Shown: positions 3-49,556 of the stretch, in pieces
Layout of the letters: the number at the start of each line of letters is the position of its first letter
Numbering within the stretch: position 1 is the stretch's first letter
The notes under the pieces: model-generated
Databases searched by the model: none
Told to the model about the DNA's origin: nothing
What the model saw: the letters and a program-made list of their open reading frames with translations, nothing else
NCBI GenBank assembly: GCA_031701365.1
Contig: GCA_031701365.1_4118.1
DNA: 64,000 bases
DNA from: Escherichia coli
GTDB taxonomy: Bacteria > Pseudomonadota > Gammaproteobacteria > Enterobacterales > Enterobacteriaceae
Direction: 5' to 3' (one strand)
Translations under genes and position numbers: made by a program

Positions 3-245
3 AAGCATAAATGGGAAGTTGTTAAATCTCCTTCATTTTGTGCTGGATATGCTAAAGTAAAGATTGAGCAGCACAAAAAACAGTACTATAAAGATATGTA
101 TTCCTTCTATGACTCCAGAATTTCTGACACAGATATGATGGCAGGGAAGGTTGATAAAGAAGAATTTCTACAAGGCTATGATATGATGGACGATGACAAA
201 ATCATGGAATGCGTTGAAGTGTATGAAAAATACAGAGGCTTCTGA
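3..245 (+). CDS. hypothetical protein, 3' fragment (gene starts upstream of window)
   Basis: open frame from window edge to TGA 243-245; stop overlaps next start (TGATG). Confidence 0.45.
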   Translation, partial: KHKWEVVKSPSFCAGYAKVKIEQHKKQYYKDMYSFYDSRISDTDMMAGKVDKEEFLQGYDMMDDDKIMECVEVYEKYRGF

Positions 246-721
246 TGTTAACAATAGTGTTGTTGGTTAGTCCATTTGTGTATTTTGTGCTGTATAATAT
301 TTTTAGTAATGCTAATCATTTTAAATATGCACAAACAATTGCAAAACATGAAGGATTTTGGAATTTTTTCCCAGCGTTACTATGCTCATATCTATACCAT
401 GAACGCTATTTCATTTTTCCTGAATATAAAAATTATGGTTATGATTCTAAAGTAAATGGTATAATTGAGTACTGTATAAGAAATTATATTAATAATAATG
501 ATAACGTCCAAGTAAGAATAGGAAATGGTAATATATCAAGAATAGTTTTCATACCTGATATACAAGACCCAATATACTTATATCCATATGATTATAGTAT
601 TAGTGTAGGTTGTTCGATACATGGTAGTAAATCTATGTACGATTATTTTATCTTACCACCAACACAAATTAGATTAATAGAAAAATATTTGAGGGAAAAG
701 TTTGACAACAAAGATTCTTAG
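245..721 (+). CDS. hypothetical protein
   Basis: 158-aa ORF, start coupled to upstream stop. Confidence 0.55.
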   Translation: MLTIVLLVSPFVYFVLYNIFSNANHFKYAQTIAKHEGFWNFFPALLCSYLYHERYFIFPEYKNYGYDSKVNGIIEYCIRNYINNNDNVQVRIGNGNISRIVFIPDIQDPIYLYPYDYSISVGCSIHGSKSMYDYFILPPTQIRLIEKYLREKFDNKDS

Positions 722-1645: not shown

Positions 1646-2067
1646 GAGGCTATAATAAGATTTGTATTTTTGTATTTTTAGTTTGTGCATTCAATTCGTT
1701 TGGTTACTACTGTACAGAAAATAATATTTCATATGGTTTAAATCCTTTGTGGTTTACAATTTCCAATGTAGCACAAATTGGTATTGCTCTTATGTCTGCA
1801 CTTATGTTCTGTCCAATTGTCACTATGGATACTGATCATGAAAGGCTTGGATTTCTCCGTGATACTGGAGACGAACCTTACAGTAGATTGATTGTGTTGT
1901 ATCCATTTATTGTTATTTTAGGTACTAACATCCAACTTGGGTCATTATCTAATAGTGTTACATCAGCAGCTATTGCTATATTTGCATTCACATTTTTTAT
2001 GGTACACAAATCAGTACTTAATTGGTATATCACAAAAATGGCAGAAGAAGGTACTAAAAATACTTGA
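1642..2067 (+). CDS. small membrane protein
   Basis: 141-aa hydrophobic ORF, ATGA overlap with previous gene. Confidence 0.6.
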   Translation: MRGYNKICIFVFLVCAFNSFGYYCTENNISYGLNPLWFTISNVAQIGIALMSALMFCPIVTMDTDHERLGFLRDTGDEPYSRLIVLYPFIVILGTNIQLGSLSNSVTSAAIAIFAFTFFMVHKSVLNWYITKMAEEGTKNT

Positions 2068-2092
2068 CATAATTTAGTATGTTATATATAAT
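2064..2092 (+). promoter_or_regulatory. sigma70-type promoter (TTGACA-17-TATAAT)
   Basis: TTGACA 2064-2069, 17-nt spacer, TATAAT 2087-2092. Confidence 0.6.
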
Positions 2093-2384: not shown

Positions 2385-2413
2385 TTGACATAACAAATAA
2401 TATGGAGTACAAT
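2385..2413 (+). promoter_or_regulatory. sigma70-type promoter (TTGACA-17-TACAAT)
   Basis: hexamers read directly. Confidence 0.55.
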
Positions 2414-2452: not shown

Positions 2453-2713
2453 ATGAAATCTATTCTCGTTGCAGTTAACCTGGTTGCTTCCCCATCTTTC
2501 AACTTCAAACAAGTTGTTGCTGATAATCTGAAGAAGATCTGTCCAAACGCTGAATTGACTTTCTGTGTGTTTGATTCAGAAAAAGTAACTAAAGTTGATC
2601 TAAACTATCTTTTGAACGAAGTACAAAGCGTTTCTGGTGAAAGTAACTTAAAAGTTATTCATGAGATTGCAGAAGATTATGATGACACTCTAGTAATTTC
2701 GGAGAAATTCTAA
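2453..2713 (+). CDS. hypothetical protein
   Basis: 86-aa ORF, RBS AAAGGAAA. Confidence 0.65.
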   Translation: MKSILVAVNLVASPSFNFKQVVADNLKKICPNAELTFCVFDSEKVTKVDLNYLLNEVQSVSGESNLKVIHEIAEDYDDTLVISEKF

Positions 2714-2718
2714 ATCAA

Positions 2719-3138
2719 ATGATTACATTCATTCAGTACTTAATCATTAAATTTTTTGGCTATTATACGATTGAGGGCAAAGCTACGCTTGCACATAAAA
2801 TCTTTGTAGCATTATGTACGGGTGATTATGACGTATTGAATAAGTACTGTAAATCTAAAGAATGTATTGATATAATGGCACTTCGTATCTATGAGTGCCG
2901 ATCCAATAGATACAATTTTTACCAGTACAGATTTGATAAAGAAGAATTTGATAGCATCAAAATGCTAAAGAATTTATGTAACAATAAAAAGAATATGCAT
3001 ATATCAGAATTTGTTGCTTTGTATTTTTATTTAAAAAGTTCATTGTATATGAACACGATGCAAAGATTCGATACTAGAATTAATGTATTCACCGATAAAG
3101 AATTTTATATATACGATAAATTCTTAGATAAGGTTTAA
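2719..3138 (+). CDS. hypothetical protein
   Basis: 139-aa ORF. Confidence 0.55.
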   Translation: MITFIQYLIIKFFGYYTIEGKATLAHKIFVALCTGDYDVLNKYCKSKECIDIMALRIYECRSNRYNFYQYRFDKEEFDSIKMLKNLCNNKKNMHISEFVALYFYLKSSLYMNTMQRFDTRINVFTDKEFYIYDKFLDKV

Positions 3139-3139
3139 T

Positions 3140-3637
3140 ATGACAACTGTTTATATTGATAAACGATTAAATTTATTGATTACCGATTCTAGAGTTACGT
3201 CAACTATACCACGAAACTTATTTGGTTTTTTCCCACTAAGACCAAAATATCAATATGGAGTTGTTAATCAAAAAACTTTATATGTACATGACCGTTTATT
3301 CAGTGCTAGTGGGTCAGTAAGTGAAATTGATAAAGTACTGGATTGGTTAATTAATAAAGTACCAGTTATACCTGACAGAAAGTTAAGTTGCCATTGTGTG
3401 CTTCTTTCTAAAGATTATGTTATTCATATGATTTTAACTAAAGGAAAGTTTATTAAAAAACTTGAATATCTACATGAAGACTACACTTTCTTTATGGGAA
3501 GTGGTGGAGAATACATGCTAGATGCTGCTATTCATGAAGAACATACAACTTTATATGATAAAGTGTTTAGTACTTTCATGGATGTGCATAACCATGATTG
3601 CTTCACAGATGATAATATTAATGTATATCGATTTTGA
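3140..3637 (+). CDS. hypothetical protein
   Basis: 165-aa ORF, starts 2 nt after previous stop. Confidence 0.6.
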   Translation: MTTVYIDKRLNLLITDSRVTSTIPRNLFGFFPLRPKYQYGVVNQKTLYVHDRLFSASGSVSEIDKVLDWLINKVPVIPDRKLSCHCVLLSKDYVIHMILTKGKFIKKLEYLHEDYTFFMGSGGEYMLDAAIHEEHTTLYDKVFSTFMDVHNHDCFTDDNINVYRF

Positions 3638-3658
3638 TTTCGTCATTAGGAGATGTAA

Positions 3659-4624
3659 GTGAAAAAGCTTGATTTAAATACAATTGCCGAAGAAGTTCTG
3701 GATGAATGTTTTGCTAATGAAGAAGTCAACACACTAGAAGCCTTAGATTTCGTTGAAGATAAAGATGAAAATGAAGGTAAAGTACAAAGCAGTTTCAAAT
3801 ATAATATTACACTTAAGCGACCACCAAATGTTTCCAATGAAGATCTAATTCGTGATATTCAAGCTGGTATCAATGTAAAGAAAAACACTGAACTGTTAGT
3901 TCGTTACAATTATGGACTTATTATTGATGTAGCAAGTAAATGTACTTGTTATATCCCATTTGAAGATAAGATTTCATATGGTGTTGAGGGGTTCATGAGA
4001 GCACTAAAAACCTTTGATCTTAATAAGAATGTTAAGTTCATTACCTATGCTTCTTCTAGTATTTACATGACAGTTTATAACGAAAGTTCTGACGCTAACT
4101 ATATGGTACACTTCCCACGTTATATGAGTGTTCATAAGATCAAAGTAAAAAGATTCTGTCAGGAATATATGCGTAAACATGGTGTTCGCCCAACTCCTGA
4201 AATAATCTCAGAGGGTACTGGGATTGAGATTCAGCATGTTAATAACTGTTTGTTATTTCAAAGCGAATACACTTCTCTGGATGCACCATTAGACGGTGTT
4301 ACCGATGGTACACTAGGTGACATTATTCATTCACCTGCTTCTGATTTTAACCTCAATGTTGATAGTATCCGTGCACCTTTACGTTATGCTATCAATGAAC
4401 TGACCAACGAATTGAGTACTAAAGAACGTGAGATTATCCAGCGTGTTCATGGTCTAGGTGAATATGAACCTGAAACGCTTCGTGAGATTGCTGATAATGG
4501 TTTTGTTGATGATAATGGAAAATATGTTAAATCCCGTTCATCAATACACCGAAAGTACAGTGAAGCTATGCAAAAGCTTAAGAAGCTAGTACTTGCAAAA
4601 GGGTACGAATACGAAGATTTCTAA
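3659..4624 (+). CDS. sigma-70 family RNA polymerase sigma factor (regions 2, 3 and 4 recognisable)
   Basis: 321 aa. GVEGFMRALKTFDLNKNVKFITYASSSI resembles region 2, VHFPRYMSVHKIKV...HGVRPTPEIISE resembles the IRIPVHM...GREPTPEE region 2.4/3, and C-terminal LSTKEREIIQRVHGL...TLREIADNGF...SRSSIHRKYSEAMQKLK is a region-4 HTH. RBS AGGAGA. Confidence 0.75.
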   Translation: MKKLDLNTIAEEVLDECFANEEVNTLEALDFVEDKDENEGKVQSSFKYNITLKRPPNVSNEDLIRDIQAGINVKKNTELLVRYNYGLIIDVASKCTCYIPFEDKISYGVEGFMRALKTFDLNKNVKFITYASSSIYMTVYNESSDANYMVHFPRYMSVHKIKVKRFCQEYMRKHGVRPTPEIISEGTGIEIQHVNNCLLFQSEYTSLDAPLDGVTDGTLGDIIHSPASDFNLNVDSIRAPLRYAINELTNELSTKEREIIQRVHGLGEYEPETLREIADNGFVDDNGKYVKSRSSIHRKYSEAMQKLKKLVLAKGYEYEDF

Positions 4625-4628
4625 AGAA

Positions 4629-4658
4629 AAAAGGTTGGCTTATGCCAACCTTTTTTTA
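4629..4658 (+). terminator. intrinsic terminator
   Basis: hairpin AAGGTTGGC-TTAT-GCCAACCTT followed by T7 run directly after sigma-gene stop. Confidence 0.75.
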
Positions 4659-5180
4659 TGGGATGAAGTAAAAGTTTGTGATATAATTATCTTGTACAAT
4701 TCTGTTGGCATGATATTCATGTACCTGATCCACTCGAAAACGTAGAGGGCAGTTGAGCAGTCCGACAGTGCGAACAGCAAAAGAAACCCGTTAGATGTGG
4801 GCATAGTTTGAACCCCTCACGGCAATGCGGCTGTATAAAGAACCACGTTAGGATAGCTGGTGGTTCCTTGATAGACATATAAGGATAACACCTTACGAAT
4901 TATCTAAGGGAGAGTTATCGAATTTTGTACAGGAAAGTTGCGTCCAAAATTTGAGTACTCACATTAAGTATTTGATTGCATAGATACTTAATGAAGATAC
5001 ACTATGTTTAAAAGTGTAGACCGTCATATGAAACTGAAGTAGAGAGAAACAGGATGACCCGCTTTCGCACTCGTTATGAGTAATCTTCAATGCAATAGCT
5101 CTGATACCATCAGCGTCAAATTTCCCTCCTTGTGGGGGGAAGAAAAATCCCTTCCTCAAATCCCGTCAATATTAAAAGTC

Positions 5181-5209
5181 CTTGACAGTTATTAATCATT
5201 CGCGTAGAA
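5181..5209 (+). promoter_or_regulatory. sigma70-type promoter (TTGACA-17-TAGAAT)
   Basis: hexamers read directly; about 65 nt upstream of the 5275 ORF. Confidence 0.55.
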
Positions 5210-5274
5210 TACGTAGTATTAGAAGCGAACAGACATCTCGAAGAGATGGATGATTAACCATTAAGGAATATCCA

Positions 5275-5484
5275 ATGAATTCAGTAATCTTTTTAGTAGT
5301 CGCTTTCTCTGTTAATTCCGGTATACAAATAACCCCAATGAATTCCATGAATCAATGCATAGCAGTACGTGATAGTACATACGAACAAGTAAACAAAGAT
5401 ATTTGGATTACAGTTAATAAAGAACAAATGTGGTGTTACAATAGTAATACTAACACAAAGCTTATTGTAGGACAAACTCAATGA
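5275..5484 (+). CDS. hypothetical protein
   Basis: 69-aa ORF, RBS AAGGAA. Confidence 0.5.
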   Translation: MNSVIFLVVAFSVNSGIQITPMNSMNQCIAVRDSTYEQVNKDIWITVNKEQMWCYNSNTNTKLIVGQTQ

Positions 5485-12901: not shown

Positions 12902-13093
12902 ATGTTGATTTATCAAGGTGATAATATTCGTGTTATGCAGCATCCCTACTTACAAATCTTTGATGTGCAGCAGTATATGGAAGGTGATGACCCAAGAACC
13001 TATGGTCGTAAGTATGATTACTTCACTGTAAAGCAGTGTAAAAATATTAACGAAGTACGACAATTAGTTCAAGAACTTCAAAACAAAGGTTGA
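12902..13093 (+). CDS. hypothetical protein
   Basis: start moved to the internal ATG at 12902 of the 12848 ORF to avoid overlap. Confidence 0.45.
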   Translation: MLIYQGDNIRVMQHPYLQIFDVQQYMEGDDPRTYGRKYDYFTVKQCKNINEVRQLVQELQNKG

Positions 13094-13119
13094 CTTCGGT
13101 CAGCCTTTTTTGTTATAAT
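13088..13119 (+). terminator. intrinsic terminator fused to promoter (GGTTGAC-TTCG-GTCAGCC, T run, TATAAT)
   Basis: UUCG tetraloop hairpin plus T6; stem contains TTGACT, with TATAAT 18 nt downstream at 13114-13119. Confidence 0.75.
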
Positions 13120-13147
13120 TCTATTAATAAATTAGAGGATTTTAATT

Positions 13148-13588
13148 ATGTATGTATATCGTTTTGAACTTAAATTTAGTTACATCGAACCTGACTTAAA
13201 ACCAGCCCTAACTGTTGGCCCGTTTGCACGGTATTCAGCCAGATACAGTACTAAAAATGGATTTGACCGTTTGCTCATGACTACACCTTCTCAATTCCAA
13301 CCTGAACCAACTGAGGATGGGATCTATTCAATCAAAAGTGGATGGGTATTTGGCTGTCAAAGTTTGAAAGATTTGTTCAGATTCTTCACTATGGACTTAG
13401 GTAAATTGCATCGTGCTGGGTTTGCTATATCTGTATATGAAGTTCCAGACCACCATGTAGACATTGGTCGTAATCAAGTTCAGTACTATTGCGGTAGTGC
13501 TAAATTAGTTCGTATCATGTCAGTTAAGGAAGCAAAGGATGAGTTCCGACAAAGTAAAAGAGAAACAAATGAGGTAATATATGGATAA
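13148..13588 (+). CDS. hypothetical protein
   Basis: 146-aa ORF, RBS AGAGGA. Confidence 0.65.
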   Translation: MYVYRFELKFSYIEPDLKPALTVGPFARYSARYSTKNGFDRLLMTTPSQFQPEPTEDGIYSIKSGWVFGCQSLKDLFRFFTMDLGKLHRAGFAISVYEVPDHHVDIGRNQVQYYCGSAKLVRIMSVKEAKDEFRQSKRETNEVIYG

Positions 13589-13925
13589 AACTCAAATAGA
13601 ATTAAAGAAATTTGTTTCATTCTATCTTCCTGATGACCCACGTAATTCACAAAAAGATATTGAATATTATAATATCCTATCTAAACAGTTAATGAGAAAG
13701 TTTCAACAGTGTTTAACAATATTCAATACAGATGGAAGACGTAGATACCGAATCGTTTCAATGAATGATGAAAACGCAAATTTCTTTGATTACGATGTGG
13801 TTTTTAGAGCATATAATGATGATCGTATAAAATTAAATTATGATCAAATTATACTTGACCTGAATGTTATATGTGTTATAATCACTCACGTAGCCGAACT
13901 TAATGGTTTTAAAGAATGGTATTGA
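13581..13925 (+). CDS. hypothetical protein
   Basis: 114-aa ORF. Confidence 0.6.
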   Translation: MDKTQIELKKFVSFYLPDDPRNSQKDIEYYNILSKQLMRKFQQCLTIFNTDGRRRYRIVSMNDENANFFDYDVVFRAYNDDRIKLNYDQIILDLNVICVIITHVAELNGFKEWY

Positions 13926-13939
13926 ATAGAGGATAACAT

Positions 13940-14206
13940 ATGAAGCTTAAATTACAATATAATGGATTTACTTTACGTAATGATACTGAATTTATTAATC
14001 GTTCTCCTGGTGCTGAACTGTTTTTACGAGAGATGAACATTCCTTTCATCATTACTACAGTGGGCGACCGTGAAGTTCTACAATACGCAGAGCATCCGAT
14101 CATTGATGTTCCTTGGTACTCTGAGCATATGTACATGGATATGGCACGTCGCTACAACTGTAAGTTCGTAGTTGAAGGTGATAAAATTACAGTCGAATTT
14201 AAATAA
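13940..14206 (+). CDS. hypothetical protein
   Basis: 88-aa ORF, RBS AGAGGA. Confidence 0.6.
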   Translation: MKLKLQYNGFTLRNDTEFINRSPGAELFLREMNIPFIITTVGDREVLQYAEHPIIDVPWYSEHMYMDMARRYNCKFVVEGDKITVEFK

Positions 14207-14217
14207 GGTAAATTAAA

Positions 14218-14511
14218 ATGATCAGTACTTCAGTTAATGAAAGCATCGTCGCTGACGTAGAAATGGTTAAAGAATGTGCAGATGAAACTCTTCGTGATAT
14301 GTACATTAATGATTTAATTACTGAATACGGTAGTCGTGGTGTACACGAATTTATTCGTTTAAGTGGAGAGTTGATGAAAAATCGAATTCGTATGAAGCTT
14401 AACGTACATCCAAAAGCATGGGCATTTACATTAAAATACGCAGAAGATATTGTGAATTTGCGTCGAACTGAAGTATATGAACGTTTGCACAATGGTATGT
14501 TAGATAAATGA
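14218..14511 (+). CDS. hypothetical protein
   Basis: 97-aa ORF, RBS AAGGTAAA. Confidence 0.6.
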   Translation: MISTSVNESIVADVEMVKECADETLRDMYINDLITEYGSRGVHEFIRLSGELMKNRIRMKLNVHPKAWAFTLKYAEDIVNLRRTEVYERLHNGMLDK

Positions 14512-14530
14512 TTGTAAAATAGGAATTCTT

Positions 14531-14557
14531 AAATGAATTCCTTTTTGTTTATAAGGT
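14531..14557 (+). terminator. intrinsic terminator
   Basis: AGGAATTC-TTAAAT-GAATTCCT hairpin followed by T5. Confidence 0.7.
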
Positions 14558-14563
14558 ATAGTA

Positions 14564-14785
14564 ATGAAATATATAGTACTTGTACTGATATTATTCAGTA
14601 CTGTTGTAAGTGCTAAACAAAAAGAATATATTAAATGTATAAATTATGAAGAGAAATATGTTGAAACATATAAAAAAAGTATAATTAAAAACGTTTCGAT
14701 TACTAACAGAGCAACAATCATTGTACTTAAAAATGGGTTAATTATGCTATATAAACCACACGTTAAATGTGAAATTATTAATTGA
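14564..14785 (+). CDS. putative secreted small protein
   Basis: 73 aa with N-terminal signal-like helix. Confidence 0.55.
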   Translation: MKYIVLVLILFSTVVSAKQKEYIKCINYEEKYVETYKKSIIKNVSITNRATIIVLKNGLIMLYKPHVKCEIIN

Positions 14786-14792
14786 GGAAAAT

Positions 14793-15365
14793 ATGAATCG
14801 TAAAGGTCGTTTTAAAGTATCAAAAAAGAACAAAAGTTCTAGGTTTAAACCTATTGTTTTAACAGTTAAATCTAACAAAGAATTAACTGCACTTAGTAAA
14901 AAGATAATTTCATCTAAGATTGAAGTATCATACGTAAATTCATTAAAATATATGAATATAAAACCACTGGACAAACTCATTTCACTTATATTTCAGCGTA
15001 ATGATTTTGAGATATCAGTAGATGATTATAGAGCCTATAATGCTGGTTTCATTAATGTTACTTGTAATAAAAAGCTAACTGAGTTGGAAAACTTGTCATG
15101 TATAGTAAATCTAGATAAAGGTGTAGTGAAATACAATTTTGTACATTTTACTAATATTAATAATGGCATGGGTGTACAATCCAGACCTATAGTACCTACA
15201 TGTGATGTTACTAAATTAGCAAAGCTCAATGATGAAGAATATTTTCAAGAAAGTATTGTGACTGAGCATTTAGATGATATAATAGCTACTTACAAAGAGT
15301 GTATATGGGTTTTGAATGCTATAAAGCCTAAATTGTGTTTAATGAATATTGTTCGTGATTTATGA
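14793..15365 (+). CDS. hypothetical protein
   Basis: start set at ATG 14793 (RBS GAGGAAAA) inside the 14769 ORF. Confidence 0.55.
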   Translation: MNRKGRFKVSKKNKSSRFKPIVLTVKSNKELTALSKKIISSKIEVSYVNSLKYMNIKPLDKLISLIFQRNDFEISVDDYRAYNAGFINVTCNKKLTELENLSCIVNLDKGVVKYNFVHFTNINNGMGVQSRPIVPTCDVTKLAKLNDEEYFQESIVTEHLDDIIATYKECIWVLNAIKPKLCLMNIVRDL

Positions 15366-15378
15366 ATGGGGAATCGTA

Positions 15379-15822
15379 ATGAGTTGGGTAAATGTTAATA
15401 GTATTGAACTTAACGAACAAGATATTTTTGCATTTGTAAATTTAACCAATAATACAGTACTAAAAGGGCGTTTGTTCAGTGCGAGTGATGGATATAAATG
15501 GATCTCTTTGATGGATGATAGTGGTGTGATTTATAATGTAATGCAATTACCCCAATGGGTATATAGTAACACTGCCGACGATGTTCTTGCCGCAGTTATG
15601 CGTGAGTTTGAAAAACTCCCAGGTGGTGATATCAAAAACAAAGTTTTTAATGCAGAACGTAAAAATTATACAGCACAGCAATTGGAATCCCTTGCCATTG
15701 CTGCTTATCAAGCTGCTATTAAGAAGCCAGAGTGCGTTATTCTTAAGTATGTACCAGACTTAAAACTTACGTTGGAAGACATGGATGCATTCATTTTTAC
15801 ATCTGAACTTGATCAGTACTAA
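15379..15822 (+). CDS. hypothetical protein
   Basis: start set at ATG 15379 inside the 15349 ORF. Confidence 0.55.
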   Translation: MSWVNVNSIELNEQDIFAFVNLTNNTVLKGRLFSASDGYKWISLMDDSGVIYNVMQLPQWVYSNTADDVLAAVMREFEKLPGGDIKNKVFNAERKNYTAQQLESLAIAAYQAAIKKPECVILKYVPDLKLTLEDMDAFIFTSELDQY

Positions 15823-15937
15823 TTTAACTTTGGGACAACCATTCTTATTATGATATAATGTTTTATGTCATTCGATATAAATGACAACGGAACTATAAAT
15901 ATTATAGTAAAATTTATCTCTTATAGGAGTTATAAAA

Positions 15938-16321
15938 ATGGTTGATAAATGGAATAAGAAAGATCCATCACATGATGTTGATATTTCTGGTCTAGACAAT
16001 GCACATAAGCACAAGTATCTAGATTCACTAGGTCTTCTAAAACCAGACCAAAGTCTTGCACATGATCGTCCATCCCGTGAAAAAGCATTTAGCCTAGAAT
16101 CACTAGGTCATGAGCTTAATCGTGTGTTTGAGGATCACCCAATCTATGTACGTGATATTATCGAGAAACTTAAAGTAACTCCTAAAGAGCACTTTAAAGC
16201 AACAGTACACTCTGCATTCCGTGCATTGCATGATTCTCTCAAGAAAACTCACAATCTTCGTAAAATTCATGATGAAATCGTGAATGCAATCGAAAGTGAA
16301 AAACATAAGTTCAAGAAGTAA
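15938..16321 (+). CDS. hypothetical protein (shares YLDSLGLL motif with the 16566 gene)
   Basis: 127 aa, RBS TAGGAG. Confidence 0.65.
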   Translation: MVDKWNKKDPSHDVDISGLDNAHKHKYLDSLGLLKPDQSLAHDRPSREKAFSLESLGHELNRVFEDHPIYVRDIIEKLKVTPKEHFKATVHSAFRALHDSLKKTHNLRKIHDEIVNAIESEKHKFKK

Positions 16322-16327
16322 TAAAAA

Positions 16328-16354
16328 GGGGTTGACTAAGGTCAGCCCTTTGTT
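16328..16354 (+). terminator. intrinsic terminator (GGGTTGAC-TAAG-GTCAGCCC)
   Basis: variant of the recurring GTTGAC hairpin with T-rich tail. Confidence 0.65.
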
Positions 16355-16390
16355 GTATCATAACTTCTCAATATAACTGAGGTATCATAT

Positions 16391-16504
16391 ATGCAAGGTT
16401 TGAAATTTGTAGTTGCTGCACTCATCGCCGCAGTACTGGTTGGTGGTGTATTCTATGTAGTGGATCAAAAAGTAAATCCACCTGCACAAGAACAATCTAA
16501 GTAA
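16391..16504 (+). CDS. small membrane peptide (37 aa)
   Basis: not in ORF track; ATG 16391, single hydrophobic helix, bracketed by two terminators. Confidence 0.4.
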   Translation: MQGLKFVVAALIAAVLVGGVFYVVDQKVNPPAQEQSK

Positions 16505-16512
16505 CAAAATAA

Positions 16513-16543
16513 GGTTGACTTCGGTCAGCCTTTTCTTTATACT
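16513..16543 (+). terminator. intrinsic terminator fused to promoter
   Basis: GGTTGAC-TTCG-GTCAGCC plus T run, TATACT 18 nt after TTGACT. Confidence 0.7.
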
Positions 16544-16565
16544 ATAAATATAGACATAGAGAAAA

Positions 16566-17843
16566 ATGAAATCTATGGAGAGAAATCAAATGCCAAGTAA
16601 TTTTACTGATAAAAATGGTGGTAACATGGCTGGTCACTCGGATAAATGGAGTGAACGCAACCGCCGACCAAATAGTTATCAAGCAGGTCAAGGTTCACGT
16701 GGATCACGTAACCAAGGAACTGGTCTAGCTGGTAAAGCAAACGCAGAAGCAGGTGAAGTTAAGAGTACTGAGAACATGACTGAGCTAGAAAAGCTACGTT
16801 ATGTTAATTCATTGGGACTTCTTAATGCTACACAAAAACAACGCCTAGCTGATATGGAACGTGAAGAAAAAGAAAAGTCTGCTCCTGCGAAAGAAGAACC
16901 AAAACAAGAAGCACCAAAGGCGGTTAACCCTGTCAAAGAATTGTCTGATAAGTTAGGTAAGATTTTTGCTAATAAACCACAACTTATCCAAGGTATTGTG
17001 AAAGAATTGCAATCTGTACCTAAAGAAGAATTAAAAGTCAAAGCACAAGCTGTACTTGATGCAATGAGTGGAAATACCAGTACTGAACCAACTGAAGTAT
17101 TCAGTACTATAATGCGTGCACTTGAAGGTACACCACAAGGTGATGTGCCTTCACAAGAGGAAGTAAGTCTTGAAAGCGTACTTAAAACATTTGATAGTAT
17201 TGGTAAAGAAGACCGTGCTAATGCTCAACAAGTTAAGAATGTACTAGCTAAGTTAGAAAACCGTCTGGAAGGTAAAGACGATAAGATTAAATTAGTATCT
17301 GATGCAGTTAACGATGCACTTAAATCTTATGTACAAGGTGAAAAGAGTCGTTTTGTAACTGCAATGGATGCTGCATTCAATACTATGAAAAAGTATGAAG
17401 CTGATCATGGTGAGAAGGTTACACGAGATGGTTATCTGATGCGTGATGATGAAGAAGGTGCAGTAGAACAGAACGATGTTCATTCAGACGAAGAAATTGA
17501 TGACATGGAAGCTGAACTGTCACAAGACCGCCAAATGACTGAAAAATCCCATAACGAACTACAGAAATTAATGCAATGGGTTGCAGATGTTGGTGAAAAA
17601 GCTGGTGCTGATAAGAAGAGTATAAATCGAAATCTTAGTTGGATTAAAGATAAAGTTGGTAACAACGCTCGTAAACTACAAAAAGCGTGGACTGATGTAG
17701 TGAATGGTGCTGTTGACATTGATGTTGAATCCGGTGAGGCATATGATTATGCATTGACTACACTTGATGACTCTTTCCGTGATTACGAAAATGGAAATGT
17801 AACTCCTTGGGAAAAGGACATCATGAGCAAATACGGTAAATGA
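16566..17843 (+). CDS. hypothetical acidic protein with basic Gly/Ser-rich N-terminus
   Basis: 425-aa ORF, largest plus-strand gene; YVNSLGLL motif shared with the 15938 gene. Confidence 0.7.
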   Translation: MKSMERNQMPSNFTDKNGGNMAGHSDKWSERNRRPNSYQAGQGSRGSRNQGTGLAGKANAEAGEVKSTENMTELEKLRYVNSLGLLNATQKQRLADMEREEKEKSAPAKEEPKQEAPKAVNPVKELSDKLGKIFANKPQLIQGIVKELQSVPKEELKVKAQAVLDAMSGNTSTEPTEVFSTIMRALEGTPQGDVPSQEEVSLESVLKTFDSIGKEDRANAQQVKNVLAKLENRLEGKDDKIKLVSDAVNDALKSYVQGEKSRFVTAMDAAFNTMKKYEADHGEKVTRDGYLMRDDEEGAVEQNDVHSDEEIDDMEAELSQDRQMTEKSHNELQKLMQWVADVGEKAGADKKSINRNLSWIKDKVGNNARKLQKAWTDVVNGAVDIDVESGEAYDYALTTLDDSFRDYENGNVTPWEKDIMSKYGK

Positions 17844-17853
17844 TAAAACAAAA

Positions 17854-17878
17854 GGTTGACTTCGGTCAGCCTTTTTTT
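17854..17878 (+). terminator. intrinsic terminator (GGTTGAC-TTCG-GTCAGCC, T7)
   Basis: read directly. Confidence 0.75.
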
Positions 17879-17915
17879 GTAAATACAAAAGAGGAATTAA
17901 GAAGAGGGATTACAA

Positions 17916-18166
17916 TGAAAAAATATATTATATTTGGAATTGTATTATTTTCCAGTACTGCTTATGGTGCAGATTATCATTGCTCCGTAGCAAGGCAGGA
18001 TTTCAGAAATGGGGAGTTCTATACTACCTCATACACAAAAGGAATAATACACGACACCGACAGAACTATTGGATTTAATGCGTTTGACAACAAAGATTCA
18101 TATACTTCAGGTATACTATCTGAGCGTAAGACTGATGTAATGGGAATAGAAAAAGAGTTCCGGTGA
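17916..18166 (+). CDS. putative secreted protein
   Basis: start set at ATG 17916 because the 17840 ORF reads through the terminator; signal peptide ending STAYGA. Confidence 0.55.
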
Positions 18167-18176
18167 TTCCGTAGCA

Positions 18177-18500
18177 ATGTGCAATGACATTGAAAGTACT
18201 AAAACAATTTATTATAATAATGAACGTAACTATCGTTTTCATAATTTAACCACAAATAAAAGTTTACTATTTTACAATTGTAAAGAAGTAATACTCCCAT
18301 CAGACAATAGCTGTACTCCAACTAATCAACCCCCAGCACAATGTAATACTCCCTCTGAACCTGATAAAAATAAAAAAGACAAAGATAAAGATAAAAAAGA
18401 AGACAAAAAACCTTTAAAAGATAAAAAGAAAGATAAAAAACCTAATCCGTTTAAAAATAATAAACCAGCACAACCCGATATGACGTGTAAAATAAAATAA
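18177..18500 (+). CDS. Lys/Asp-rich low-complexity protein
   Basis: 107 aa with KDKDKDKKEDKK repeats. Confidence 0.5.
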   Translation: MCNDIESTKTIYYNNERNYRFHNLTTNKSLLFYNCKEVILPSDNSCTPTNQPPAQCNTPSEPDKNKKDKDKDKKEDKKPLKDKKKDKKPNPFKNNKPAQPDMTCKIK

Positions 18501-18509
18501 GGATATATA

Positions 18510-18929
18510 ATGAAAAAGATTTTTTTAAGTATTATTTTAGTACTTTTTAGTTTTAATGTATATGCAACAGATGCTAAACAGGTTGCAAATACAGTAAAAG
18601 ATGTTATAGTAGATAATGCTCCTACATTAGAGGAAATTGGGGTAAAAACTTGTGATATAGTAATATATAATTTAGTTAATGATGAACGAGTTATGTTGAA
18701 TACGTATGAACAAGTAGTCCCATTGGTTGAATCTGGTGATGCTTTTAGCTTTACATATAAAGTTAAATTAACAGGAGGGGTTGAAGTTAATCTTGACATT
18801 GATACCGCTTCAGTACTAAAAGATAAACTAGGATATGTGTTCAATCGTATTCGTGAAGAAGGTCATCTTAAGTATGTTTATGAAAGTAAAATACTAAAAC
18901 GTGCAATAGTTATAGAAAACTGTAAATGA
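18510..18929 (+). CDS. putative secreted protein
   Basis: 139 aa; signal peptide ending NVYA; RBS AAGGA. Confidence 0.65.
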   Translation: MKKIFLSIILVLFSFNVYATDAKQVANTVKDVIVDNAPTLEEIGVKTCDIVIYNLVNDERVMLNTYEQVVPLVESGDAFSFTYKVKLTGGVEVNLDIDTASVLKDKLGYVFNRIREEGHLKYVYESKILKRAIVIENCK

Positions 18930-18937
18930 TAATAAAA

Positions 18938-18969
18938 GGGTTGACTTCGGTCAGCCTTTTTTGTTATGA
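18938..18969 (+). terminator. intrinsic terminator fused to promoter
   Basis: GGGTTGAC-TTCG-GTCAGCC, T6, then TATGAT 17 nt after TTGACT. Confidence 0.75.
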
Positions 18970-18998
18970 TGTTGATATTAACTACAGAGGATAAAGTA

Positions 18999-19640
18999 AT
19001 GACTAAGCAAGAAATATTCAAAACTTTAATTGACATTTTGCGTCCATCAAAAACTCGTTGTGCGATGGAGTTTGATATTCCTTATGCTGAACGCGTAATC
19101 TTTCCACAAGTTAAAGCTGCTGGACTTACTTTGCTTGGAATGGGGATGTACTCTGTAGTAGTTGAACATAAAAACTATCCTGGGCGTGCATTTAAAGTAA
19201 CCACATCCCGTTGGGATGGTTTTCGTGCTTATGCAAAGTACTGCATTGAAAACGCAGGAACCAAGTTTCTTCCAGTGATCTACAGTGCAAACGAACAAGG
19301 AAACTTTGGATGGTATGAGATGGACAAGTACTATCCTATAATTAAACAAAAAAATAATTATGATGACTTTGTTAGTACTAAAATTGGAGATTTATATTCT
19401 TATGCACATGCTGGTCAGTACGCTACTTCAGTGAATGATATGCGTGGAAATTCTGAAGAGATTGCTATTGCGACGGTCGCTGCTAACATCATGAAAGAGT
19501 TTCACGGGCGTTTTGTACCAGACATTCATTCCAGTAATGTCATGATGGATAAAGATGGCAATGTATTCATTACTGATCCTCTTTCGTGTGATGTACGTAG
19601 AGAAATACCAGTTACTGAAGAAGATCCAGTTTTTTATTGA
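18999..19640 (+). CDS. hypothetical protein, possible kinase-like fold
   Basis: start set at ATG 18999 (RBS AGAGGA); DIHSSNVMMDKDGNVFITDP resembles a kinase catalytic loop and metal-binding segment. Confidence 0.5.
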   Translation: MTKQEIFKTLIDILRPSKTRCAMEFDIPYAERVIFPQVKAAGLTLLGMGMYSVVVEHKNYPGRAFKVTTSRWDGFRAYAKYCIENAGTKFLPVIYSANEQGNFGWYEMDKYYPIIKQKNNYDDFVSTKIGDLYSYAHAGQYATSVNDMRGNSEEIAIATVAANIMKEFHGRFVPDIHSSNVMMDKDGNVFITDPLSCDVRREIPVTEEDPVFY

Positions 19641-19701
19641 CAGAACTGATGTTCTGGTGTATTCTTAATAAACCATAAAAATTGCGGTAAAGGATAAAAT
19701 C

Positions 19702-19983
19702 ATGCGTTCATTTGAAAACTTAATAGGTAAGCATCTTTTATCTGAAATTGATGCAGACGTTAAAGAATTATCCAAATCAAAAAGTTACATTCATTTGGAT
19801 GAACTGTTTATTAAGTACGGTGAGATTGGTTTTAAGTCATTATTTGTTTTTACTATGAAAGTACATAGTTTAAAGTACTTCGATTTGAGTGCTAAAGATG
19901 GTGAACCGAATCTATATTACATGTATTACCTTAAGAACAAAGATGAAGCTAATACATTACTCTCTGAATATATATTGGGGTAA
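19702..19983 (+). CDS. hypothetical protein
   Basis: 93-aa ORF, RBS AAAGGA. Confidence 0.6.
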   Translation: MRSFENLIGKHLLSEIDADVKELSKSKSYIHLDELFIKYGEIGFKSLFVFTMKVHSLKYFDLSAKDGEPNLYYMYYLKNKDEANTLLSEYILG

Positions 19984-19985
19984 AA

Positions 19986-20324
19986 ATGGAACAATATTTT
20001 GAATTAATAAACAAAGTATCATTTTATGTAGTATCTTTGGTTTGGGTGTATTATATGTTTTGCTACATTATTGCATTCTTCCGATACACTACTTTATATG
20101 AACGTATCTACTATGATGCCCCAATTTCATTCTTGATGTTTTGTGCATGTACGTGGGGAATATTAGAAGTACTGATATGTGGGTATAGTACTGATGAATT
20201 AAATCTGGTATCGGTCTTGACTGGGTTTTCATTTGTTGTTATGATAGCTGCCGTTCCAGTATGGTTGTTCTTTGGACTAGTTCATCGCATTGATATATGG
20301 CGTTCTAATATCCCTGAAAAGTAA
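19986..20324 (+). CDS. small membrane protein, paralog family M (A1)
   Basis: 112 aa, 3 hydrophobic helices, C-terminal WRSNIPEK. Confidence 0.65.
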   Translation: MEQYFELINKVSFYVVSLVWVYYMFCYIIAFFRYTTLYERIYYDAPISFLMFCACTWGILEVLICGYSTDELNLVSVLTGFSFVVMIAAVPVWLFFGLVHRIDIWRSNIPEK

Positions 20325-20333
20325 GGATTTGTA

Positions 20334-20675
20334 ATGATTTATTACACTAACATGTTTGCCTATGCTGTTGCTTGCATTTACATTGTTTACTTCTTATTCG
20401 GTGGAGTACTGTGCTTCTTTAAGTACAAAACGTTGTTCAACCGAATGTACCCAAATCATCCAATTGTAGTTGTACTTTTGATTCTTTCAGTTTCTCAAAT
20501 AATCGTTGAAACTACAATGGGTATCAGTAGTGTACATTATAGTTTTGGTACTATAGTAATTATTACTATGCTTATTGCATACATTTTAGTACTTGGATAT
20601 GGTATCTTTGGTAATATTGGTATGAAAATGTATCATCGAATTAAAACATTACGTGATAATCTACCGGAGCGTTGA
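20334..20675 (+). CDS. small membrane protein, paralog family M (A2)
   Basis: 113 aa, C-terminal LRDNLPER. Confidence 0.65.
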   Translation: MIYYTNMFAYAVACIYIVYFLFGGVLCFFKYKTLFNRMYPNHPIVVVLLILSVSQIIVETTMGISSVHYSFGTIVIITMLIAYILVLGYGIFGNIGMKMYHRIKTLRDNLPER

Positions 20676-20676
20676 T

Positions 20677-21021
20677 ATGTATAATTTGAACCTAATCTCA
20701 TATATTATAACAACACTGTTTACATTCTATGCCTTTGTTGGTATAATCCTACTGTACTTTAAATTTTATAAAGTGTTTAACCGTTTCTATCCTTCAATGG
20801 AGAATGAGTTTTTCTTTGTGTTGTACGTAGGTTACACATTAATGGCTACATGTTTCACTGTAGCCGATGGTGTCATCGGCATTAAAACTGATTCCCCAAA
20901 TGGTAGTACGCTGGTTGCATTTATTCTTACCGGATTCCTTGCAACTTATATTGCCTTCATTACAACATGGTCAGTGGTTGAATTTCTCTTGCGACTACGA
21001 AAGAATATGCCGAATCGATAG
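20677..21021 (+). CDS. small membrane protein, paralog family M (A3)
   Basis: start set at ATG 20677 just after previous stop; C-terminal LRKNMPNR. Confidence 0.6.
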   Translation: MYNLNLISYIITTLFTFYAFVGIILLYFKFYKVFNRFYPSMENEFFFVLYVGYTLMATCFTVADGVIGIKTDSPNGSTLVAFILTGFLATYIAFITTWSVVEFLLRLRKNMPNR

Positions 21022-21030
21022 GAGACATAT

Positions 21031-21285
21031 ATGTTTGCATTGCGTAACAAAAACACTAAAGAATTATTATGTATTGATACCGTATGGGATTGTGCGGGTT
21101 CAACTACAGTTCTTGAAGAAGGAACTGGATATTGCGTGTTTGTTGTACATGATAGGAATGAACTCGAATTATTACTTGCTGAGTTCAATGCTGGTGGTAA
21201 TCCTAACAGTACTGAATACCCTGAGATTATCAATCCAGCACCTCCAGGTTCATATGAAATCCTACCACTATGGGTGTTGAAATAA
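21031..21285 (+). CDS. hypothetical protein
   Basis: 84-aa ORF, RBS TAGGAGA. Confidence 0.55.
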   Translation: MFALRNKNTKELLCIDTVWDCAGSTTVLEEGTGYCVFVVHDRNELELLLAEFNAGGNPNSTEYPEIINPAPPGSYEILPLWVLK

Positions 21286-21665
21286 TGCGACAAATGTACA
21301 AAGTAACCGAGCTAAACAAGCGTCTGGTTAAACAATCTATGTTTGAGGATAAAGAGTCTTACTATAACTTTAAACGTGCTGTAGAGGCTGCTATCCACAT
21401 CCAGAAGCTTAAAGAACGTGGTTGTATTATTCTGGAAAATGGTTCGGAAGTTGTAACGGATGACTTTAGTGTAGCGTTTGATGTTTCACCTGATGGGACG
21501 CTATCAATGCCCCGCTTAGGAACTGGAAACATGACTGTTTGGGTTGGCTTCACTATGGGGAATGTACCTGGTACTGTGTACGTAGATGATGCGGAATTGA
21601 AAGACAGTTTCAAAAACTTATCTTATCTTGAACCACAATACGCACATGAAATGAATTTATTTTGA
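21285..21665 (+). CDS. hypothetical protein
   Basis: start set at ATG 21285 (TAATG overlap) inside the 21270 ORF. Confidence 0.55.
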   Translation: MRQMYKVTELNKRLVKQSMFEDKESYYNFKRAVEAAIHIQKLKERGCIILENGSEVVTDDFSVAFDVSPDGTLSMPRLGTGNMTVWVGFTMGNVPGTVYVDDAELKDSFKNLSYLEPQYAHEMNLF

Positions 21666-21666
21666 G

Positions 21667-21725
21667 TTGACAAACACATTCAGTACTGTATAATGCTTAT
21701 CAAGGGGGATGAACTTCTCATCCCT
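21667..21725 (+). promoter_or_regulatory. promoter plus 5' stem-loop (PeSL-like)
   Basis: TTGACA, spacer ending CAGTACTG, TATAAT, then hairpin GGGATGAA-CTTC-TCATCCC before the RBS. Confidence 0.6.
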
Positions 21726-21742
21726 ACAATCGAGGAACTACC

Positions 21743-22297
21743 ATGATTACTTTTAAGAAAACTGCTAACCACATCCATGAAATCTACATTAACGGTCATA
21801 AAGCTGGCCTTCTTCGTTTACTCGCCCATCACCCTGATGCTACCGTATCTGATAATGAACCTAAAGATTGGCGTGTCTTTTTCTTTGGAAAGTACAGTGA
21901 TTTTCAAGTATCAAACCTGAAGAACATTCGTTCAGTATGCACGTTAACTGAAATTAAAGAAAAGTTAGCACAAGCATTGAAAACTAATCCAGATGGTGTT
22001 CTTCCACCTGATAACTTTGTAGAGAAAGGTTATGCCTTAGCTCATTTCAAAGATGGTACTATTCAATCTATCAGTACTGAATATGAATATCATTGGACTG
22101 AGTACTTCACTTATGGTTCGAGTAATACATTGATGGATTCACGTAGTAAATTGGAAGAAGTACTGACTCGTATGAATGAACGCGAGCGTCAGTTATATGA
22201 CAAACCAGAAATGTGGAGTTCAACTTACATTGACCGTATTGACTATGTTATTATGACTCCAATCTTTGACACTGCTTACTATGATTCTTTGAAATAA
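21743..22297 (+). CDS. hypothetical protein
   Basis: 184-aa ORF. Confidence 0.65.
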   Translation: MITFKKTANHIHEIYINGHKAGLLRLLAHHPDATVSDNEPKDWRVFFFGKYSDFQVSNLKNIRSVCTLTEIKEKLAQALKTNPDGVLPPDNFVEKGYALAHFKDGTIQSISTEYEYHWTEYFTYGSSNTLMDSRSKLEEVLTRMNERERQLYDKPEMWSSTYIDRIDYVIMTPIFDTAYYDSLK

Positions 22298-22308
22298 GGA
22301 TAACTTAT

Positions 22309-22765: not shown

Positions 22766-22773
22766 TTAAAAAT

Positions 22774-47619: not shown

Positions 47620-49556
47620 TTAAACACATATAGACAGGGGAAGCTCCGTAGTGGAAGCATTATACAGGCTTTAACATATGTTGCATATGTTAAAATTCAG
47701 CCTGGACAAATGCGATCACTAGGATTCTCCCCAGGCTAAACCCCGTAATCATAGGTAGTCATAAGTAATCATATATAAACATTTATATGAGCACAGTAGA
47801 ATCACAGAATGATTATATATGATTCAGTACTGATTAGTATAGACAAGATTGCTCAAGAATGCACGGAAATGTGTGTGAATGATTCAGTACTGATATGCCA
47901 CTAAGTAGGCAGAGGAAGTCTGCCGTACTTTGTAGTTTCCAAGCTCCTTTTCCATTTTGCAAATTACATCAAATGTAATCAAAAGTAATCACGCAATGAT
48001 TAGTACTGAATTATTACTTTCACCTTAATTTCAATTACCCCTTGAGGCTCCAGCAAAAAGTTGGTTAGTACTCCATCCTAAATCTCGATCCTAAAAATTT
48101 TGGAGTACCTATGAAATAAAAGTTGGATCTTCGAAAGTTGAAATTTACGTTGGGACATATAGGATTTGTGGGATATAATGAGTTTTGTAGCGATACAGAT
48201 TATACGATTTCAGTACTGAAAGATGAAAGAAAGTTATTGACTTTATGATTCAGTACTGTATAATGTTCTACATAGGGTGATGAGTTGCTGCGAACAATTC
48301 ATTTACTCTACCTCCTGTCGTGAGACAGTACAGAAAAGATAGTTCCTCCTGTGGTGGTACATCTTTTTGAACCTCATATGAAAATTGTAATAACAGTACT
48401 GATATTAACAGAATGGTGTCAGTACTGATTTTAATCTAAAGCATTATGCCACCAGCTTGTGCTGGTGGATTCCCTCTAACAGTATTCAGTACTACATGAT
48501 GGTCTTCATCCTCCTAGGGTAACATAGTGAGGGCTATGATGGCAGTACTGAATACTCCCTTTCAAAAGATAGATCTATGGTATAGTACTGACGGATTTTG
48601 GGTGTAGTTACCCTGGATGGATTTTGGGCGTAGATATGTCTAGCCCTCCAGAAGTCTGGAAGTAAAGATGGCTATCCATCTAGACGGCTAAACGGCTAGA
48701 TTTCTGGATGGCTGGATGGCTAGACGTTTGGACGGCTAAACGGCTAAACGGCTAAACGGCTAAACGGCTAAACGGCTAGATGGTTACACGTCTGGAAGTA
48801 TAGACGGCTAAATCAAAATTTTATTTTGTTTTTTCCAATAGTTCCCCTACCGCGTGGGGATAGTTTCCCCGCAGTATCAGGAGTTAGATTTTTCTGAATC
48901 TGGAATTATTATCTTATAAACTGGGGGCAATGTCAACGGCCAGGACGGATATTTTTAAAATTTTTTCAGTACTGAATTTTGGGCGTAACTATGCACCCGG
49001 TGGGCTTGAGTCTTTCTCGACTTGATGGAACTATTATACAGTACTGAAAAAATAAAGCAATACCCTGGAAGCAAAAAAGTTTTAATTAATTTGCTTGCTA
49101 TCCTGGGCCGGACTATGGTACTATATTTCAGTACTGAGAAAGTGCGTTGACCTGCTAGGGTGCGGGAGTGTATCCTTTTTTTATATCTTGAATTTTGGGC
49201 GTAATTCCGCACCCCCTGGGGTATCCGCTTTCTCGCGTCTATGTAGTAATTATACGCTTTTTCAGGATCAAGTCAATACCTAAAAACAAAATAATTGAAA
49301 ATAATTTAATGCGTTTAAACGGCATGTAACGCCCTGGATTGTTGGGAGTGGGGCAAATGTATAGCTTAGGTGTATTAATGCGTTAGAATGCGTCTGAGGC
49401 CGTTTTACGGGGTATAGGGATGATTTGGTGGATTGATTCAGTACTGAATAATAGTACTACTATATAGAAAGATAGTTCCCCTGGATGGTTGCAGTACTGA
49501 ATGACAGTTCCCCTATATAGAAAGAAAACTATTTTAAAAGTACATGTAGAAAGTAC
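47620..49556. other. ORF-free region of about 1.9 kb, dense in AGTACT palindromes and short repeats
   Basis: no credible ORF on the plus strand; more than 20 copies of CAGTACTG-like palindromes; contains the tandem 8-mer array and GCACCCGGTGGG-type elements. Confidence 0.6.
48732..48779. repeat. tandem direct repeat (ACGGCTAA) x5 plus one degenerate copy
   Basis: five perfect 8-mers followed by ACGGCTAG; degenerate copies (GGCTAGAT, GGATGGCTGGATGG, GACGGCTAAATC) flank it from about 48610 to 48815. Confidence 0.85.

Follow-up and report, generated by a model that had tools for sequence, protein, structure and literature searches.

In the Bacillus phage SPO1, an early-made phage sigma factor, gp28, replaces the primary sigma of the host and turns on the middle genes, including those for the late sigma, and late transcription in T4 uses gp55, gp33 and gp45. 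A third system is phiEco32 gp36, which Pavlova and colleagues (2012, cited in PMC7318152) are said to have described as a coliphage sigma-70-family factor that redirects the host core enzyme to phage middle and late promoters; reportedly it is small and ECF-like, lacks region 3 and has another promoter motif. The SPO1 cascade (gp28 for middle, then gp33/gp34 for late genes) is also stated in PMC13401047. All 'group 2' jumbo phages encode a minimal gp55-like sigma together with a fuller RpoD-like one (Iyer et al. 2021, PMC7824862), and the latter was presented as a hallmark of the phage group in the paper on phage Sharanji (PMC11895373), while a 2026 review holds that jumbo-phage sigmas 'likely' work with host RNA polymerase (RNAP) on phage-specific promoters (PMC13282480). 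Here we analyse a stretch of 64,000 nucleotides from an Escherichia coli assembly (GCA_031701365.1), referred to as the window, and in it the open reading frame 3659-4624, which encodes a sigma factor of the RpoD-like kind. We hypothesise, with a probability of roughly 55%, that this protein would be the middle sigma in a cascade that runs from host sigma-70 through the phage sigma to the gp55-like sigma.

The window is 99.7-99.8% identical to the Asteriusvirus coliphages G17, Sharanji, 121Q, PBECO4 and phAPEC6 (genomes of ~350 kb), and its source is an Asteriusvirus (RaK2-like) jumbo phage and no ordinary T4-type phage. The sigma gene itself is already known and ordinary for this group. It is annotated as an RNA polymerase sigma factor in 121Q (gp167) and in Sharanji (gp182, 'rpoD', WNN14470.1), is matched over its full length by tblastn in 73 records of jumbo phages, and encodes a protein that is 99.4-99.7% identical in Asteriusvirus records and 35-44% identical in other genera. 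The five coliphages named above have the same gene, with no difference of substance, and the remoter orthologues RaK2 ORF244, CBB_513 and the GAP32 sigma are alike in early-region context and domain order; that of CBB was placed in a predicted early region (PMC5259590). A second sigma of 121Q, gp591 (321985-322824 of that genome, outside the window), gave no match in Pfam and matches an annotated gp55 of a T4-like cyanophage. Since 121Q encodes gp591 separately, the RpoD-like sigma adds to gp55 and does not substitute for it; the protein of 3659-4624 falls outside the T4 gp55 family and inside the RpoD-like sigmas of 'group 2' jumbo phages (PHROG 351), in whose genomes a gp55-like gene is also present. 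The initial annotation had considered a complete sigma to be unusual for a T4-type phage, where gp55 would normally serve, and this oddity disappears once the phage is recognised as an Asteriusvirus, with a published hallmark sigma and a coexisting gp55-like gene. Our literature search found no experimental work on this sigma or its annotated orthologues, and the RaK2 genome paper treats neither promoters nor sigma. What we infer that is new concerns the early timing of the gene, the altered DNA-reading residues of its product, a third promoter class and the covariation of a promoter box with the recognition helix.

Five independent tests corroborated the initial annotation in that the open reading frame encodes a true member of the sigma-70 family, in which regions 2, 3, 3.2 and 4 are present. 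The strongest Pfam match was to Sigma70_r3 (residues 162-226, 2e-09, 37.8 bits against a cut-off of 25.3), accompanied by matches slightly below their cut-offs to region 2 (residues 80-140, 7e-05, 23.0 against 24.0 bits) and to part of region 4 (residues 251-279, 3e-05, 23.8 against 24.1 bits), the three being collinear with the canonical sigma-70 order. Among the NCBIfam models, RpoD_Cterm matched residues 79-283 (6e-25) and the sigma-70 superfamily model TIGR02937 scored above its cut-off (44.7 against 42.9); PHROG 351, 'RNA polymerase sigma factor', matched at 2.6e-60, and 58 solved sigma chains matched at 5e-17 or worse. In an AlphaFold2 (AF2) model the domains reached a predicted confidence (pLDDT) of 78-89, and its top Foldseek matches were sigma-S and sigma-A in holoenzymes (probability 1.00). 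The protein is thus a member of the superfamily by both its region 2 and its region 4. The GTG start is correct, because the N-terminal MKKLDLN is conserved in all homologues. The N-terminal 49 residues are acidic and predicted to be disordered except for a family-conserved helix at 6-18, and over residues 1-80 (3659-3900 in the window) MKKLDLNxIxDEVLDECF is followed by an acidic disordered stretch of variable sequence; K2, L6 and F18 are nearly invariant in all clades. Functionally, this N-terminus may correspond to region 1.1 of sigma-70, or it may serve to dock some other factor.

The placement of the protein within the family could be narrowed only in part. The closest profiles are RpoD and RpoS, yet all equivalog and subfamily cut-offs in NCBIfam are missed widely: for RpoD, RpoD_Cterm reached 88.2 against 354 bits and PRK05658 64 against 555, and for group 3, FliA_WhiG reached 55.4 against 189.6 and SigBFG 56.4 against 234.35. 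The sole likeness to group 3 is a missing W dyad, and group 4 (ECF) is contradicted by the presence of both region 3 (2e-09) and the 3.2 linker. Regions 1.1 and 1.2 (Pfam r1_1, r1_2) and the non-conserved region were not detected. A profile search, which the initial annotation had proposed for assigning a sigma-70 group, therefore gives the superfamily and the nearest relatives, but no RpoD, RpoS, FliA_WhiG or SigBFG cut-off is reached. The GenBank label 'rpoD' is too specific, because the RpoD equivalog cut-offs are not attained and the DNA-reading surfaces are the protein's own.

These surfaces were compared by alignment with E. coli sigma-70, whose numbering we use for the residues replaced. 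As in sigma-70 and sigma-S, regions 2.1-2.4, 3.0-3.2 and 4.1-4.2 are collinear, and the pocket for -11A is kept or conservatively changed (F419, E420, R423, K426 and Y430 to F, D, K, K and Y), as are kept N383 and L386 around the -7T pocket and the F-x-T-Y-A motif. The differences from these two sigmas lie in the W dyad (W433/W434 to Ser-Ser), the -12 recognition residues (Q437, T440 and R441 to M, Y and N), the extended -10 (TG) residues (H455 and E458 to Y and V), the core contacts of region 2.2 (Q406 to S, E407 to Y, N409 to V, with D403 kept), the -35 contacts and a hairpin in the helix-turn-helix (HTH) of region 4.2. For that region MAFFT left two possible registers, and the choice was settled by the AF2 secondary structure, which has sigma4 helices at 234-249, 254-264, 274-280 and 293-313, the last a long recognition helix, with a beta-hairpin of about 9 residues (282-290) inserted in the HTH. 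Hairpin residues G281, D284 and G287 are nearly invariant across the phage sigma family. The recognition helix reads R293-S-S-I-H297-R298-K-Y, and of the sigma-70 residues R584, E585, R588 and Q589, which correspond to R293, S294, H297 and R298, only R584 is kept. Apart from R584, the conserved -12 and -35 contact residues of groups 1 and 2 are accordingly absent, and precomputed Pfam matches to region 4 number 0 in the close phage family, whereas all distant cellular relatives have them. The resemblance in regions 2.4 and 4.2, which by the initial annotation's own criterion would have refuted it if spurious, is thus sound in fold and domain order and does not extend to the residues that read DNA, most of which are replaced; judged from the alignment, the DNA-reading surfaces of the phage sigma appear to be its own and unlike those of sigma-70.

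Enriched k-mers in the 121Q sequences upstream of genes (219 regions) were inspected for promoter classes, and three emerged. The second, G[AG]GAC[AGT]-N16-18-TA[TC]AAT, has 21 sites in 121Q, on the + strand only, where Markov-1 simulations gave an expectation for both strands of 2.15 +/- 1.39 (maximum 5) and control hexamers had 0-3 sites. The sites share the consensus aaaa.a.tG(g/a)GACAAa...gTGATATAAT; of the 21, 18 have a 16-bp spacer and 17 have TGn before the -10, compared with mixed 16-18 bp spacers and TGn in ~12/49 in the early class. Class-2 sites lie upstream of the genes for the single-stranded DNA-binding protein (SSB, gp6), primase (gp19), exonuclease (gp29) and topoisomerase II (gp52), before several nucleotide-metabolism genes, unknown genes and tRNA-Gly, and 85 nt upstream of the late-sigma gene gp591. 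The tRNA-Gly site is TTAGAGACAAAAAA...AATATAAT at 72641 of 121Q, ~40 nt upstream of the tRNA (72682-72754), and through it the class-2 regulon may extend to some or all of the tRNA cluster of the phage. In the window there are two canonical sites and one degenerate site, the latter directly behind the terminator of the sigma gene (Table 1); its orthologue in phage UE-S1 has a canonical GGGACA. One canonical site stands in a gene-free gap that is 86% identical to 121Q, against 99.7% for a 2.4-kb stretch at 3000-5400 of the window; a sigma-70 promoter of the AGTACTG type (see below) lies at 48237, ~85 nt after the class-2 promoter, and no paralogues, tRNA or Rfam matches were found in the gap. 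Class 2 corresponds to promoters that were described in CBB and GAP32 as 'divergent RpoD-like', with the motif TGAAACG...TATA (PMC5259590).

The link from this class to the sigma draws on a comparison across genera of orthologous promoters, namely those of the late-sigma gene, of primase, topoisomerase II and SSB, and of a structured RNA described below. In these the TATAAT hexamer is constant and the -35-like box varies. As far as is known, region 4.2 of host sigma-70 is essentially invariant among the hosts of these phages, and the box should therefore have a reader that the phage encodes. A candidate for this role is the RpoD-like sigma, because it evolves fast (35-44% identity between genera), whereas the gp55-like sigma evolves slowly (73-78%) and its TAAATA motif does not change; the slow and the fast sigma thus parallel the constant late motif and the variable -35-like box. 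The box GRGACA of 121Q goes with the helix SRSSIHRKY, GGGACA of 7t3 and SE_PL with SRTSLHRCY, GGAACG of CBB and SNUABM_47 (published as TGAAACG, PMC5259590) with SKATLSRRY, and TGAACA of RaK2 (about 10 sites, with a 17-bp spacer) with VRGTLHYKF. 121Q and 7t3 have the same box, and their sigmas have R...HR at the contact positions in common, even though overall identity between the two proteins is just 37%. In two further phages the box was predicted from the helix alone and then confirmed, as GAGACA for EJP2 (NRCTIHRRY) and as GGAACG for XbC2 (SKATLSRRY), whose host is Xanthomonas. Tentatively, helix position 7 (Q589 of sigma-70) may pair Arg with a box that starts with G and Tyr with one that starts with T.

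The sigma gene is probably early and transcribed by the host sigma-70 holoenzyme, since two promoters of sigma-70 consensus lie upstream of it and an intrinsic terminator, annotated also in UE-S1 and G17, lies downstream (Table 1). The + strand of the first 12 kb of the window has five perfect and four 11/12 consensus promoters of this kind; at a threshold of at least 11/12 there are 40 in the window (33 of them on the + strand, and 15 of the 40 perfect) and 118 in 121Q, concentrated at 50-170 kb.

We propose, then, that the host holoenzyme would transcribe the sigma gene early and that the phage sigma would bind the host core RNAP and send it to phage-specific middle promoters of the form A-rich...(T/G)G(A/G)GACAA-N16-TG(A/C)TATAAT, whose -35-like box would be read by the altered region 4.2, with its inserted beta-hairpin and recognition helix. 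Class 2 would in this way switch on genes of replication, recombination and nucleotide metabolism, a tRNA, four copies of the structured RNA and the gene of the gp55-like late sigma, which would then read late promoters of the TAAATA type. Taken whole, that is as a three-sigma cascade on host core RNAP in which a hairpin-bearing region 4.2 reads a re-coded GRGACA box at a fixed 16-bp spacer, box and helix having diversified together across jumbo-phage genera, and in which the regulon includes a multi-copy ~400-nt RNA confined to these phages, the proposal is more tentative, and we would put it a little short of even. The cascade would work as that of SPO1 gp28 does, here with a Gram-negative host and a late factor homologous to T4 gp55. 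T4 is alike in its three temporal classes, in middle promoters that keep a sigma-70-like -10 (often with TGn) and replace the -35, and in having gp55 and late promoters of the TAAATA type, counterparts of which are found in the jumbo phage; it differs in that it has no RpoD-like sigma and remodels host sigma-70 with AsiA and MotA, and in that its middle box lies at -30, whereas in the jumbo phage the box takes the place of the -35, with 16 bp between it and the -10. With phiEco32 gp36 the phage sigma shares membership of the sigma-70 family in a coliphage.

Several points weigh against assigning class 2 to the phage sigma. The assignment is correlative as drawn from the genomes; the covariation comprises ~3 independent box and helix states and is confounded by phylogeny, and any clade-specific phage DNA-binding protein would yield the same pattern. 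The TGnTATAAT of class 2 is an ideal extended -10 for host sigma-70, extended -10 promoters can function without a -35, and the residues with which sigma-70 contacts -12 and TG are missing from the phage sigma, whose core-binding region 2.2 has also diverged at the three positions given above. Moreover, the middle promoters of T4, which also have a sigma-70 -10, are read by appropriation of sigma-70 and need no new sigma. A similar appropriation here, with host sigma-70 reading TGnTATAAT, a clade-specific MotA/AsiA-like phage factor on GRGACA, and the RpoD-like sigma reading some other motif, is unlikely, and it keeps the standing that it has because T4 reads analogous middle promoters through AsiA and MotA. 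It would account for the perfect extended -10 and for the missing contact residues, and CBB and XbC2 have a gene for an HTH 'transcriptional regulator' at two genes' distance upstream of the sigma gene. However, the box has a GAC core at the 16-bp spacing of a sigma -35 and is not at -30, it changes together with the recognition helix of the phage sigma, the three genes that precede the sigma gene in this phage gave no Pfam match at all and so no Pfam DNA-binding domain, and the k-mer enrichment yielded no fourth promoter motif as another target for the sigma. A search for an AsiA-like protein gave a best E of 0.055, inside gp502 (which has no Pfam domain); its query was an approximate T4 AsiA sequence, and MotA was not searched, which makes it a weak negative, to be counted for little against appropriation.

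The large number of consensus promoters in 121Q bears on a second alternative, in which the phage sigma is a surrogate that reads TTGACA/TATAAT and sustains early transcription once host sigma-70 is inhibited or titrated. This would agree with RpoD and RpoS as the best profiles and with the presence of other modifiers of RNAP (a DksA-like protein and a GNAT acetyltransferase), but with other base-contact residues in regions 2.4, 3.0 and 4.2 and an insertion in the HTH, identical specificity is unlikely, and the score lies far under all RpoD and RpoS equivalog cut-offs (88 vs 354 bits). We regard it as improbable.

Still less probable are the targets that the initial annotation had put forward, the promoters containing AGTACTG and the cassettes that precede the RCC1-like genes. 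Both kinds are abundant, stereotyped and phage-specific, and AGTACT occurs 252 times in the window against ~22 expected from base composition (~11-fold), so that something probably recognises it; it could be an operator for some regulator or a site related to modification or restriction. The promoters in question nevertheless belong to class 1 (TTGACA/TATAAT), which also takes in terminator-promoter cassettes. They have the form TTGACA-N16-18-TATAAT, with the AGTACT palindrome in the spacer (AGTACTG directly before TATAAT) and a transcribed GGGGAGAATAGTTCTCCCC hairpin, and all 15 in the window match the sigma-70 consensus at 11/12 or better, canonical or nearly so, for which host sigma-70 should suffice. 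AGTACT is also often repeated next to the -35 and occurs within terminator hairpins (GCCAGTAC...GTACTGGC). In the terminator-promoter cassettes, the 5' arm of a hairpin with a UUCG tetraloop contains a TTGAC that serves as -35 for the sigma-70 promoter that follows, with a 17-bp spacer. Two candidate motifs were rejected on inspection: GGTTGACTTCGG is a terminator hairpin, its TTGAC doubling as a sigma-70 -35, and AATAGTT is spacer and 5' untranslated hairpin sequence of sigma-70-type promoters.

The RCC1-like cassettes, for their part, consist of a terminator hairpin, GCCAGTAC-nnnn-GTACTGGC, followed by ATTAAATATAGTATAATGAATAAAGGAGG, in which a T4-late-like TAAATA box overlaps TATAAT; a 17-mer of the cassette has four exact copies in the window. 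We assigned their post-hairpin sequence, ATTAAATATAGTATAAT, to class 3, (T/A/C)TAAATA, which in 121Q lies 35-60 nt before structural genes and is of T4-late type (ATAAATA occurs 26 times in the upstream regions against 1.7 expected). As structural genes do, the RCC1-like genes carry ATTAAATA, of the T4-late/gp55 type, ~37 nt before the start codon. For the phage sigma, G(A/G)GACA-N16-TGnTATAAT would be a better candidate target than either. Finally, a decoy that binds core RNAP and ousts the host sigmas (host shut-off), with no specific initiation, would suit the diverged DNA-reading residues and the acidic N-terminus, but is very improbable, as the family-conserved -11A pocket, 3.2 linker and recognition helix argue for DNA binding.

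Among the proposed products of class 2 is an unannotated structured RNA of ~400 nt downstream of the sigma gene, which may be a more novel finding than the sigma itself. It has four copies per genome in 121Q and orthologues in SE_PL, EJP2, SNUABM_47 and XbC2; across the phage group it is present at 3-5 copies in 62 records and almost never annotated. Nine sequences gave 96.2% pairing over 80 predicted pairs, 47 of them with compensatory double changes, compared with 37-43% pairing and 5-15 double changes in slid controls, and 0/500 shuffles reached the observed values. Rfam gave no match, and the two RaK2 loci examined did not reveal the RNA. Every copy examined has a class-2 promoter 40-60 nt upstream, always of the type found in that clade, and a clean intrinsic terminator closes two of the copies. 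In most clades a copy lies in synteny with the sigma gene, at 0.1-6 kb downstream of it. In phage PA5oct, four non-coding RNAs were defined by RNA-seq, one of 451 nt making up about 5% of phage reads (PMC7318152).

The initial annotation had also seen, in the sigma and a TraR/DksA-like gene, a set of proteins directed at RNAP. The TraR/DksA-like gene is real (zf-dskA_traR), and with the sigma and an adjoining GNAT acetyltransferase it would form such a predicted toolkit (Table 1). A further 121Q gene, gp205 (18966-19640 in the window), is annotated as 'protein kinase; inhibitor of host transcription', an unverified label, and gave no Pfam match at E <= 0.01.

Table 1. Features of the sigma locus and of related elements; positions are those of the window unless another genome or the protein is named
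Feature	Position	Strand	Remarks
Sigma-70-family gene	3659..4624	+	321 amino acids, GTG start, TAA stop; limits exactly as in the initial annotation
Shine-Dalgarno AGGAG	3648..3652	+	6 nt before the GTG of the sigma gene; read off the sequence
Domains of the sigma protein	residues: sigma2 ~60-146, sigma3 ~154-199, 3.2 linker ~200-235, sigma4 234-313		
Perfect sigma-70 promoter TTGACA-17-TATAAT	2064..2092	+	heads the gene run that ends in the sigma gene; inferred early
Sigma-70-type promoter TTGACA-17-TACAAT	2385..2413	+	11/12; upstream of the genes 2453-4624
Intrinsic terminator of the sigma operon	4626..4657	+	14-bp stem, UUAU loop, U-run; free energy -20.1 kcal/mol, z -5.95
Class-2-like promoter GGGATG-N16-TATAAT	4660..4687	+	TGTGA before the -10; directly after the sigma terminator
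Class-2 promoter GGGACA-N16-TATAAT (TTGGGACAACC...ATGATATAAT)	15832..15859	+	proposed sigma target; the gene at 15938 follows after 106 nt
Class-2 promoter (TTGGGACATAT...GGGATATAAT)	48152..48179	+	within the 1.3-kb gene-free gap 47620-48955
Structured RNA, ~400 nt, unannotated	4695..5135 (conserved core 4716-5122)	+	proposed class-2 transcript
Structured RNA, paralogues in 121Q	192836-193256, 247505-247964, 326675-327061		four copies per genome in all
Structured RNA, orthologue loci	L017 24657-25042, L019 24866-25240, L016 24652-25081, L020 24658-25056		
AGTACTG promoters, examples	51691, 58624, 59216, 60330, 62346, 62542, 62972		
Terminator-promoter cassettes GGGTTGAC-TTCG-GTCAGCCC-TTTTTGCTATAAT	~13090-27200 (121Q 98698-112729)		about 9 copies
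Tandem RCC1-like genes	32458-43661	-	each behind one identical cassette
DksA/TraR-type zinc-finger protein	60066..60323	+	zf-dskA_traR, 5.4e-11 (Pfam); 121Q gp294, annotated DksA-like
GNAT acetyltransferase	60387-60743		Pfam; adjoins the DksA/TraR gene

The role of jumbo-phage sigmas becomes cheaply testable with a defined promoter class, a defined helix and the swappable box variants GGGACA, GGAACG and TGAACA. If the phage sigma does read class 2, these phages would hold natural orthogonal pairs of sigma and -35 that work on E. coli core RNAP, and the promoter classes would show the timing of about 600 genes, most of them without annotation. It would also mean that a relative of T4 solves the switch to middle genes by a new sigma, where T4 itself does so by appropriating the sigma of its host.

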